Origin: a virus
Taxonomy: Duplodnaviria > Caudoviricetes
Reading direction: 5' to 3' (one strand)
Virus record (IMG/VR): IMGVR_UViG_3300025718_000005
Location: 1,976-65,975 of that record
Length of the DNA stretch: 64,000 nt
The translations under genes and the position numbers were made by a program. Each line of letters opens with the position of its first letter. Positions within the stretch are counted from its first letter, which is position 1. The notes under the pieces were generated by a model. The model ran no database searches. It was given only the letters and a program-made list of their open reading frames with translations, and was not told where the DNA came from. Shown here piece after piece: positions 14,614-62,881 of the stretch.

Positions 14614-15264
14614 GTGATTAAAATAGCTAAGCCCTTAGACATTACTGGGGAATCTTTCGAGCGGCTAACGGCCGTTAGAAGAGTAGGTACTACAAAACAG
14701 GGCCATGCACTGTGGTTATTCCACTGTGCATGTGGTGGGGAATGTACTTCTGTTTTGGGTAATGTTCGTAGCGGAAATACGACTAGCTGCGGGTGCTTAA
14801 GTAGTAGATTGTACAGAACCCACGGAATGAATGGGACACGGTTATTTGGTATTTATCGAAAAATGATTGATCGGTGCTATAACGCTAAGAATAAATACTT
14901 CCATCGTTACGGCGGCCGCGGGATTGCGGTTTGCAAAGAGTGGCTAAACGATCGTTCAATATTTTTTGAGTGGGCTAAAATGACCAGATATGCCAATAAC
15001 TTATCTATTGATCGTAAAAATAACGATGAAGGATACTCGCCAGGCAATTGTCGGTGGGCGACACAACGGGAACAGGTAAACAATAGAAATAACACTATTT
15101 TTATTACAGTAAACAACCTAACAAAACCCCTAGCCGATTGGGCGCGAGCAGTGGGAATGAAGCCATCAGTTGTCAGGAGTAGACTAAAGCTTGGGCGTAG
15201 CCCAGAAGATGCGTTAAATCCAAATTTGTTTAATAAGGAGAATAACTTTGAAAGAAAAATTTAA
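14614..15264 (+). CDS. HNH homing-type endonuclease
   Basis: FERLT...WLFHCACG...SCGC, THGM, MIDRCYN, YGGRGIAVCKEW, SIDRKNNDEGYSPGNCRWAT. Confidence 0.9.
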   Translation: MIKIAKPLDITGESFERLTAVRRVGTTKQGHALWLFHCACGGECTSVLGNVRSGNTTSCGCLSSRLYRTHGMNGTRLFGIYRKMIDRCYNAKNKYFHRYGGRGIAVCKEWLNDRSIFFEWAKMTRYANNLSIDRKNNDEGYSPGNCRWATQREQVNNRNNTIFITVNNLTKPLADWARAVGMKPSVVRSRLKLGRSPEDALNPNLFNKENNFERKI

Positions 15265-15811
15265 TGAGCTACTTTATTCAGTACCAAGGGATGGTATTAC
15301 TAAACTTTTAGAATGGCTAGAAACTGGGGATATGTACGTAGCCCCTGCCAGTACAAAGCATCATGGAGCTGTAGAAGGTGGCCTAGTGGCCCACAGCCTA
15401 GAAGTCTATGAGAGTCTTCAAAAGATCAATGAGGCCTTTAATCTAGGGATTACAGAGGAAACTATGATTATCACGGCTCTATGTCATGACCTTTGTAAAG
15501 TGGGCTACTACAAGGTATCCAGTCGTAACATTAAAAATGAATACGGAAAATGGATACAAGTCCCTTACTATGATATAGATGATAAATTCCCTATTGGTCA
15601 CGGGGAGCGCTCCGTTATTCAACTCCTGCAATTCATCAAACTAACTGAAGAAGAAATGCTGGCCATTAGATATCATATGGGCGGGTTTGATGACTCAGCG
15701 CGTGGTGGGTACTCCGGTAGTCAATCAATGAGCGCCGCGATGGGTAAATATCCACTGGTAGCCGCGCTACACTTAGCGGATATGGCCGCTACCAATTTCA
15801 GCAGTAAGTAG
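15248..15811 (+). CDS. HD-domain phosphohydrolase
   Basis: HHGAVEGGLVAHS, CHDLCK, GHGERS, IRYHMG, LHLADM. Confidence 0.88.
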   Translation: MKEKFNELLYSVPRDGITKLLEWLETGDMYVAPASTKHHGAVEGGLVAHSLEVYESLQKINEAFNLGITEETMIITALCHDLCKVGYYKVSSRNIKNEYGKWIQVPYYDIDDKFPIGHGERSVIQLLQFIKLTEEEMLAIRYHMGGFDDSARGGYSGSQSMSAAMGKYPLVAALHLADMAATNFSSK

Positions 15812-61331: not shown

Positions 61332-61959
61332 TAGTTTAACAGCGAGGGGTAAAATTATCCTCTCGCTTATTTTAGTTGTTGTCGTATTGGTGGTATGTGG
61401 TGCTGGATATTATGCATGGCAGAAACACTCTGATACCGTAGATAAATTACAGCAGGCCACAGTGTTGAGTCAACAACAAGCCCAGGATGCAAATGTCCTA
61501 CAGAATAAACTAGACCTGAGTAAGCAAAATGCTGAGATGTTGGCCAGCTTTATTAAACAAGCTCAAGCAGGCCAGGTGCAGCCAATAAATAATTTTACAG
61601 TCCAGGCGCCAGACGTCCAGCAAGCAGCAGAACAGGTAGCCAATCGTATTAATGCCAAAGATCCCACATTGCCTCCTGCAGCATTAGAAAAGACTGACAA
61701 TACTATTGTGACACCTAATATAAATAAAACTCCTCAGGCTAATTATGATGTTGCTGTATTTAAAAATAATAATTATAGGAATTGGGAATGGTCTGCCGGC
61801 TATGGCCAGCATGGCGGTGATCGATATATTCCGGTAGAGCTACAGCGGAATTTTAGCAAGGATGCTGCTGTGAGTGCGGAGTATCATTATGGTGGCAATG
61901 AAAAAGGTTTTGAGGTTAAGTATACTCATAAGACTGATAAGTTATTTTTGCTATTTTGA
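61324..61959 (+). CDS. Spanin-like protein (N-terminal TM, coiled coil, C-terminal amphipathic beta strands)
   Basis: Overlaps the endolysin stop; topology read from the sequence. Confidence 0.5.
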   Translation: MFNSLTARGKIILSLILVVVVLVVCGAGYYAWQKHSDTVDKLQQATVLSQQQAQDANVLQNKLDLSKQNAEMLASFIKQAQAGQVQPINNFTVQAPDVQQAAEQVANRINAKDPTLPPAALEKTDNTIVTPNINKTPQANYDVAVFKNNNYRNWEWSAGYGQHGGDRYIPVELQRNFSKDAAVSAEYHYGGNEKGFEVKYTHKTDKLFLLF

Positions 61960-62061
61960 AACGTCCATGGGATGCATACCGTAACGCCATAATGGTTATC
62001 AATAGCTTTATACGTGTGCATCACGTAAAAAATAAGTGCTATAATAAGAGTAGAGAGGGAA

Positions 62062-62353
62062 GTGTTTTAAAACGAGATGTACAATCATTAAGAATATACT
62101 AGTCCATATAAGTGGCGATGATATTAGCGCTGAAGAATTATCAATCTATCTTAGTGTGGCTCAGGTCAAGCAAAAACATAAGATTATTAAGGCTAATGTT
62201 GCTGTGGATGGTGAGTATGTAAGTATCCACTCCATATTCGATCCGGTACCCTTCGACCGCATACGCCGCATCACCGGCTACCTTGTAGGCAGTACTAATC
62301 GTTGGTGTGATAGTAAGCGGGCGGAGGAACACGATAGGGTTAAGCATGGGTAG
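62062..62353 (+). CDS. Stand-alone NrdD C-terminal (glycyl-radical loop) peptide; 5' end uncertain
   Basis: FDRIRRITGYLVGSTNRWCDSKRAEEHDRVKH; the frame is open upstream of 62156, but the RBS-linked GTG at 62062 is one base out of frame. Confidence 0.75.
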
Positions 62354-62432: not shown

Positions 62433-62436
62433 CGAA

Positions 62437-62476
62437 GGCCACTATCGAGCGTAATTGCTTGGTAGTGGCCTTTTTT
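62437..62476 (+). terminator. Strong intrinsic terminator
   Basis: GGCCACTA...TAGTGGCC + T6. Confidence 0.8.
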
Positions 62477-62486
62477 AGTTACTTAA

Positions 62487-62543: not shown

Positions 62544-62819
62544 GTGGCTGAAGAAAAAATGCATAATCCAGAGGATTTTATTGATGTACCAGCTCCAACT
62601 CATGGTAAGGATGTCTATTATAGAGTATGTTATGGTACAGTGATCTGGCCTAATAAAGAGGAGCATAAGGCAATATTTACAGTAATGAGCTATCCAGATA
62701 GAATTAATTATCGTTCAGTTGCGCATATGATAACTACCCCGAGTAATGCTAATAGCCTATCAGAATTTGATCAAGTTTTAGCTGCCATGCAGAAATTAAG
62801 AGATAGATATTGTAAGTAA
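62544..62819 (+). CDS. Hypothetical moron protein
   Basis: Own promoter, RBS AGGAGG and terminator (62825-62864). Confidence 0.6.
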   Translation: MAEEKMHNPEDFIDVPAPTHGKDVYYRVCYGTVIWPNKEEHKAIFTVMSYPDRINYRSVAHMITTPSNANSLSEFDQVLAAMQKLRDRYCK

Positions 62820-62881
62820 TTGTTTAGCCGCCTTGCTCTTAATTGGGTGAGGCGGCTATTTTATTTGCCAACAACTACTAC

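Follow-up and report, generated by a model that had tools for sequence, protein, structure and literature searches.

The window that we analysed is a stretch of 64,000 nucleotides, comprising bases 1976-65975 of a 65,975-b IMG/VR virus record, at the left end of which a tyrosine-type integrase gene adjoins tRNA-Thr. The lysis cassette ends at 61959, and 3' of it we place a small gene whose product is a free-standing protein with the glycyl-radical loop of NrdD, the class III ribonucleotide reductase (RNR) (Table 1). The open frame of this gene spans 62054-62353 (99 codons) and contains, counting from the upstream stop, no ATG, GTG or TTG before codon 29; the first canonical start is the GTG at 62156, which would yield 65 aa.

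Table 1. Features of the small gene and of a paralogue found in other genomes; positions refer to the window unless a locus is named.
Feature	Position	Strand	Remarks
Putative extended -10 element, TGcTATAAT	62037..62045	+	Read from the sequence; -35 weak; not flagged by the consensus scan
Shine-Dalgarno-like purine run, GAGAGGGAAG	62053..62062	+	About 10 nt 5' of codon 62072; identical in L157
GTG of the earlier note	62062..62064	+	Out of frame (GTG TTT TAA); not the homologous start
Small gene, free-standing NrdD-type glycyl-radical-loop protein	62072..62353	+	93 codons plus stop; ACG at codon 1, against ATG in relatives
N-terminal domain, residues 1-56	62072..62239	+	Predicted beta-beta-alpha-beta-beta
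In-frame GTG, codon 29, the only canonical start	62156..62158	+	65-aa product that would miss half of the N-domain; no SD
Glycyl-radical domain part, residues 57-93	62240..62350	+	Beta-hairpin FDRIRRITGYLVG plus helix (KRAEEHDRVKH)
Codon GGC, G69, predicted radical glycine in RITGY	62276..62278	+	Invariant across the 116 aligned members
Intrinsic terminator-like hairpin plus T-run	62434..62483	+	Hairpin at 62434-62473; 18-pair stem with 8 G-C pairs; partly conserved in L157
Gly-less paralogue	L149:3065-3256; L150:3041-3229	-	Also in 11 more genomes; profile positions 3-65 only

Start codon, selection and phage setting

When aligning the open frame with its relatives, we find that codon 62072 coincides with the initiator Met in 55% of 120 homologues. 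In L003, at 78% identity the closest relative from a virus, AAA ATG GGA TGT stands opposite AAA ACG AGA TGT of the window, and the Shine-Dalgarno (SD) geometry is the same as in the window, with AAAGGA, 11 nt and then ATG. Judged from this alignment, the ancestral ATG of the gene is an ACG in the window copy. ACG is not a start codon in translation table 11, and translation may begin either at this ACG, which is preceded by an SD, or at GTG 62156, which is not; in the relative P0001/L157, gene callers chose the in-frame GTG equivalent to 62156.

Among metagenome contigs, an exact pattern matched none, and a codon-degenerate pattern retrieved L157 and L158. The first of these is an independent contig that is 93.5% identical over the cassette, has a different lysis module upstream and carries the same SD, the same ACG and an identical -10 (TGcTATAAT), with the DNA farther upstream diverging. 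The presence of the ACG in this independent contig rules out a sequencing error as its source. A perfect 5+5 palindrome, ACGTG-TGCAT-CACGT, lies over the putative -35 position of the window (62012-62026) and is not conserved in L157.

The earlier note, made from the letters of the window alone, had given the product 65-97 aa and had observed that the GTG linked to the ribosome-binding site is one base out of frame. Both statements are correct, the homologous start giving 93 codons. Its further suggestion that the 5' end is slipped or damaged does not hold, given the ACG at the homologous start, the same ACG in L157 and the purifying selection described below. A frameshift or slippage at the GTG-TTTT-AAAA run (62062) is not needed, since the homologous start is at 62072 and L003 does not have such a run.

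The window copy could also be a dying gene, silenced when its ATG became ACG and lingering as an open frame. This would be in keeping with the missing canonical start between the upstream stop and codon 29, with an ACG that falls outside table 11 and with an internal GTG that has no SD. However, window and L157, which share ACG, SD and -10, differ by 12 synonymous and 4 non-synonymous changes (dN/dS 0.09), and the comparison with L003 gives a dN/dS of 0.18, likewise 0.18 over the 28 codons 5' of GTG 62156. These ratios indicate that the gene is still selected as a protein. Moreover, the gene is free of stops and frameshifts in three related contigs, and the spacing from SD to ACG matches that from SD to ATG in L003. 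We regard a dying copy as very unlikely.

Together with its putative promoter and the terminator-like hairpin, the small gene is, as far as can be read from these elements, a one-gene unit and a typical moron. Downstream of it lies a 91-aa ORF (62544-62819) with a terminator of its own (62825-62858), which has no Pfam match and in whose place L158 has other DNA, followed by a gene for a Y-family (IMS) DNA polymerase that starts at ~62954. The small gene recurs beside genes of this kind: L158 has the pair of small gene and Y-family polymerase with a different 700-nt insert between them, and P0126 is an in-frame fusion of the small protein with the last two-thirds, on the C-terminal side, of a Y-family polymerase. 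The two genes may form a mobile stress-cargo module.

The gene lies near the right prophage end and represents only the 3' end of nrdD, both of which would suit a remnant of the host nrdD 3' end at the prophage attachment site. Yet the integrase is at the other end, by tRNA-Thr, that site is not repeated in the last 6 kb, and in L157 the lysis module that precedes this cassette is another one. In addition, the 56 residues 5' of the loop form a domain that is conserved in thousands of free-standing homologues. The family alignment and the missing repeat rule this origin out, and its probability is close to nil.

We also examined the rest of the phage. In the virus record there is no barrel, full nrdD, nrdG or radical-SAM gene (PF04055 and PF13353 unmatched), and the small protein must therefore work with host proteins. 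The best matches of the large terminase are below 48% identity and belong to unrelated phages. In the early region, a gene for a receiver-less Spo0A C-terminal domain (2381-2755; PF08769, E 2.8e-32) points to a spore-forming Firmicute as host. Near the replication genes, the window encodes a PF18909-related protein (dATP/dGTP diphosphohydrolase N-domain) and an HD-domain protein (26079-26513 and 15248-15811); as judged from these predicted functions, the phage's commitment to nucleotide metabolism goes further than the small gene.

The encoded protein and its family

The last ~35 residues of the small protein correspond to the glycyl-radical loop of NrdD, RIRRITG69YLVG...DRVKH. The PF13597 match covers positions 533-562 of 562 (the C-terminal ~32 aa; 27.4 bits against a cut-off of 26.2), NF011292 matches with an E of 3.6e-11, and hhalign against the C-terminus of a Ruminococcus NrdD gives a probability of 99.3% over 38 columns. 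The best solved relative of the loop is the NrdD of Prevotella copri (8p23, residues 702-738), and G69 aligns with the Gly of RITGYLVG in both 8p23 and the Ruminococcus NrdD. The reading of the earlier note, a free-standing NrdD glycyl-radical loop on an ORF without barrel, is borne out by these four matches. With respect to the other parts of NrdD (PF13597 / TIGR02487), the ten-stranded alpha/beta barrel with its Cys finger loop (~550 model positions) is absent from the 93-aa protein, residues 1-60 contain no CxxC pair of the four-Cys Zn ribbon, and hhalign finds no NrdD homology outside the last 38 columns; the C-terminal loop, R-x-x-G-Y followed by the conserved helix, is present. The scores of the small protein, 26.5-42 bits, fall far short of the NrdD equivalog cut-offs of 326-764. 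The Gly_radical domain of the pyruvate formate-lyase (PFL) type, PF01228, was not matched, PF13597 being the sole Pfam model that hit at E up to 1.

Upon modelling with AlphaFold2 (AF2), the protein reached a mean pLDDT of 80, with a helix at 80-89 and hairpin strands at residues 62-66 and 69-73, the second of which starts at G69. Among 116 aligned sequences there is no variation in the loop residues F61-R-I-R-R-I-T-G69-Y-L-V-G73 or in K82, E85, D88, R89 and H92; in the N-domain E22 is invariant, and G15, Y26, D46 and G47 are conserved in at least 90%. A Foldseek search of the model against the PDB gave no match at E up to 0.001, and VIA-align of residues 1-60 gave only a generic alpha/beta match, to the ToxR periplasmic domain (Z 6.5).

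We next consider the extent of the family. With candidates limited to a length of 35-114 aa, at least 7994 of the 8000 scored match; the best 120 homologues are mostly about 86-102 aa long, and their alignment includes the non-NrdD N-domain too. The gene is present in at least 80 species genomes; 583 stretches matched in genome contigs, and only the 80 loci that were kept are counted as carriers, because the 583 may include C-termini of full-length NrdDs. When sampling 121 genomes of the Megamonas class, with a carrier defined by a small gene that covers the whole family profile, 74 were carriers. Pfam, NCBIfam and PHROGs hold no dedicated model, and the names in the source databases are 'hypothetical' or 'NrdD-like'. 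The earlier note had allowed that all homologues might be decayed fragments of full-length nrdD; thousands of them keep both parts, and by its alignment the small gene is a member of a large family and not a decayed nrdD fragment.

Gene neighbourhoods in the family are mostly variable, with nrdG adjacent in ~4/107 loci. Neighbours linked to oxidative stress recur among Ruminococcus-type loci, where rubrerythrin lies directly downstream in 7 and a divergent regulator of the Crp/Fnr family upstream in 8-9. No fusion of the NrdD barrel with the N-domain was seen among the longer matches, which were tandem-loop NrdDs or loop-only proteins without barrel.

NrdD with and without its own loop in carrier genomes

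In Megamonas (L085), Anaerovibrio (L133) and G085 (L151) we observe the gene order nrdD'-small-nrdG, neighbouring genes lying a few tens of bases apart or overlapping by as much. In all three loci NrdD stops right after the Zn motif, which stays on the large protein (...CPRCG...), and the R-x-x-G-Y loop is missing. Other truncated NrdDs stop in a decayed first hairpin strand (...LIVDRIRV*, ...ERIRRFTHLEARN*, ...RERIHRIIAVG...*) and a shorter NrdD class stops soon after CPxCG, each of these forms being followed by nrdG. Truncated NrdD is thus seen in at least four different forms; the sequences point to a cis loop that was lost independently several times. The truncated NrdDs of L153 and L154 (G128, G164), with decayed first hairpin strands (ERIRRFTH.., RERIHRIIAVG..), look like intermediates in this loss.

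Upon partitioning the 121 sampled genomes by the state of NrdD, scored as truncated where PF13597 is matched no further than position 540 of 562, at least 26 have a truncated NrdD. All 26 are among the 74 carriers, against 0/47 genomes without the small gene among the matches listed (Fisher p 4e-7, kinship ignored), and ~17 of the 26 lack NrdD at full length. Where the sole NrdD is loop-less, the small protein is apparently the only visible source of a radical glycine. In the 2.23-Mb contig of G085 no class I/II RNR was found by PF02867, an absence that is not watertight because the search also misses one cyanobacterium in its control. Of five split-NrdD genomes tested, four have a class I/II RNR besides, which means that not every such organism depends on its split enzyme. 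In addition, the Selenomonad-type genomes with split NrdD contain a paralogue with the same N-domain that reads ..PFE(R/C)IRRI.. and ends before the radical glycine (Table 1); it may plug the loop-less NrdD without supplying a radical, or regulate it.

When examining 43 carriers for NrdD itself, we found it in all 43, and in ~37 of them at full length, including Ruminococcus, Oscillospiraceae and Coriobacteriia. Since most carriers have a complete NrdD, the need for an extra loop has to be deduced there. In three cases the loop of the small protein is identical at 28-29/32 positions to that of the full-length NrdD of the same genome, with lineage-specific residues in common. The closest bacterial relatives of the phage copy in the sample (G042, G090, G022 and G053) are all in genomes with full-length NrdDs, and this favours a spare-part role for the phage copy, a suggestion based on the genomes of these relatives.

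We also scanned the 160 nt upstream of each small gene for NrdR boxes, using random windows of the same loci as controls. Matches of at least 13/16 precede 32/106 small genes, compared to 3/1050 control windows (p 3e-32), and many of these loci belong to genomes in which every NrdD is full-length. Second boxes occur with a modal spacing of 31 nt from start to start, which corresponds to the canonical 15-bp spacer of NrdR sites, whose 16-bp boxes come in pairs 15-16 bp apart (PMC12051234). The window copy has no NrdR box upstream, its best match being 9/16.

A further arrangement is found in P0121, P0122 and P0123, NrdDs of 827-846 aa with two tandem near-identical loops, in the layout ...ERIRRITGYLVG...DRVKH, a linker of 10-20 aa and again ...ERIRRITGYLVG...DRVKH. 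They stem from three sources and differ in sequence, so an assembly artefact is unlikely. In these proteins the second loop looks like a built-in spare, and the three clusters suggest that redundancy of the loop has been selected in another form too.

These genomes bear on two other readings of the small protein. In the first, the free loop would be a decoy or regulator that competes for NrdG or caps the NrdD barrel and so tunes or blocks class III RNR, whether for phage takeover or as a radical buffer. A phage that lacks nrdD and nrdG of its own is compatible with this, as is the Selenomonad-type paralogue with N-domain and ..PFERIRRI.., which resembles a non-radical plug, and membership in the NrdR regulon also suits a regulator. 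However, genomes with only a loop-less NrdD need a loop, and it is there that nrdD' and nrdG flank the small gene; all 116 members have the same radical glycine with the same residues around it, and the identity to the resident loop takes in the C-terminal helix, which would be superfluous for a pure decoy. We consider a decoy unlikely.

In the second, the small protein would serve another glycyl-radical enzyme (GRE) or an unrelated role, with an NrdD-like loop reused. Most loci do lie away from nrd genes, and the N-domain has no informative fold match. Against this stand a loop specific to NrdD by PF13597, NF011292 and 8p23, with no PF01228, the NrdR boxes, which are specific to RNR operons, the NrdD in every carrier checked and the perfect association with truncated NrdD, and we hold such a role to be highly improbable.

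A proposed trans-acting loop and its known parallels

Oxygen destroys GREs by cleaving the backbone at the radical glycine. Our preferred reading, which we consider probable, is that the product of the small gene is a glycyl-radical loop that serves class III RNR in trans. The host activase NrdG, a radical SAM protein, would take a hydrogen from G69 of the free small protein, and the activated hairpin would then insert into an NrdD barrel that is without a working loop. The loop may be missing from the barrel because O2 cleaved it at the glycine, which would make the small protein a spare part, or because the host nrdD no longer encodes it, which would make the pair a two-subunit enzyme; accordingly, the small protein would be expected to act as a spare alongside a complete NrdD and as the regular radical subunit alongside a truncated one. 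The N-domain would, we infer, dock on NrdD or NrdG, or shield the free loop. A likely effect of the prophage copy would be that dNTP synthesis is maintained in the lysogen or during infection. We infer radical installation, docking and rescue after O2 by analogy, as the glycyl-radical domain of NrdD flips out of the barrel for activation by NrdG and then returns (PMC12662201), and activated YfiD/GrcA replaces the lost piece of PFL (PMC8683613, PMC13450708).

The earlier note had already proposed an autonomous NrdD radical piece that acts in trans. The split genomes, the operons, the NrdR boxes and the loop identity all speak strongly for this part of the proposal, whereas its picture of a spare does not extend to the several lineages in which the small protein apparently carries the sole loop. 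The note's alternative, a decoy for NrdG, is in our view the less likely one.

The closest parallels are two autonomous glycyl radical cofactors (PF01228, IPR011140), E. coli GrcA/YfiD and Y06I of phage T4. Like them, the small protein is small and free-standing and joins an extra N-part to the C-terminal loop of a large GRE; the loop is very similar to that of the resident enzyme, and the gene is phage-borne, as in the T4 case. At ~90 aa and with a gene of its own, it has the GrcA-type architecture of a small free-standing duplicate of the resident GRE loop, and the proposed role is also alike, in that the activase would install a radical and the piece would replace an O2-cleaved loop. Unlike GrcA/YfiD, its loop derives from NrdD and not from PFL, with no match to PF01228, its N-part is a predicted folded alpha/beta domain and not a disordered tail, and its proposed partner would be class III RNR with NrdG. 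Furthermore, there are natural genomes in which NrdD has lost its own loop, and we know of no PFL that has lost its own loop altogether.

With NrdD the small protein shares homology over its last ~35 residues, RITGYLVG plus helix, but it has no catalytic barrel, ATP-cone or Zn-ribbon cysteines, and its 56 N-terminal residues have no counterpart there. In the split class II enzyme NrdJa/NrdJb of Pseudomonas aeruginosa, an RNR chain is likewise divided into a barrel protein and a separate C-terminal piece (PMC9669993). That enzyme belongs to another RNR class with another cofactor, and NrdJb contributes Zn-finger/IscU-like domains for re-reduction and not the radical site.

A GRE review of June 2026 describes spare-part proteins only for formate lyases and leaves their existence for other GREs undetermined (PMC13450708), and in comprehensive surveys of RNRs, PMC9669993 among them, split enzymes come up for class II but not for class III. 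In the full-text literature, with few subscription journals covered, we found neither an NrdD spare part nor a split or two-subunit class III RNR described. The idea of a spare part is well supported by sequence comparison; the family would be an autonomous glycyl-radical cofactor that serves class III RNR, differs from known ones in its N-domain and occurs naturally in obligate two-subunit forms as well. We lean, by a little, towards a wider reading in which the small protein would be the first autonomous radical cofactor for a non-PFL GRE, would have displaced the cis loop completely in several independent lineages and formed an NrdR-controlled two-subunit RNR there, and would be spread by temperate phages as a moron.

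Many strict anaerobes, abundant Firmicutes of gut and rumen among them, obtain their DNA precursors mainly through class III RNR. The small-protein family offers a concrete candidate for the open question of spare parts outside PFL, and it flags thousands of genes that are now 'hypothetical' or mis-labelled as NrdD fragments. The loop-less NrdDs with an adjoining small gene and nrdG are ready-made trans-complementation systems. If the proposed role is true, the oxygen-labile radical site would be a cheap, replaceable cartridge under NrdR control, which suggests how anaerobes and their phages may sustain DNA synthesis through oxygen pulses.
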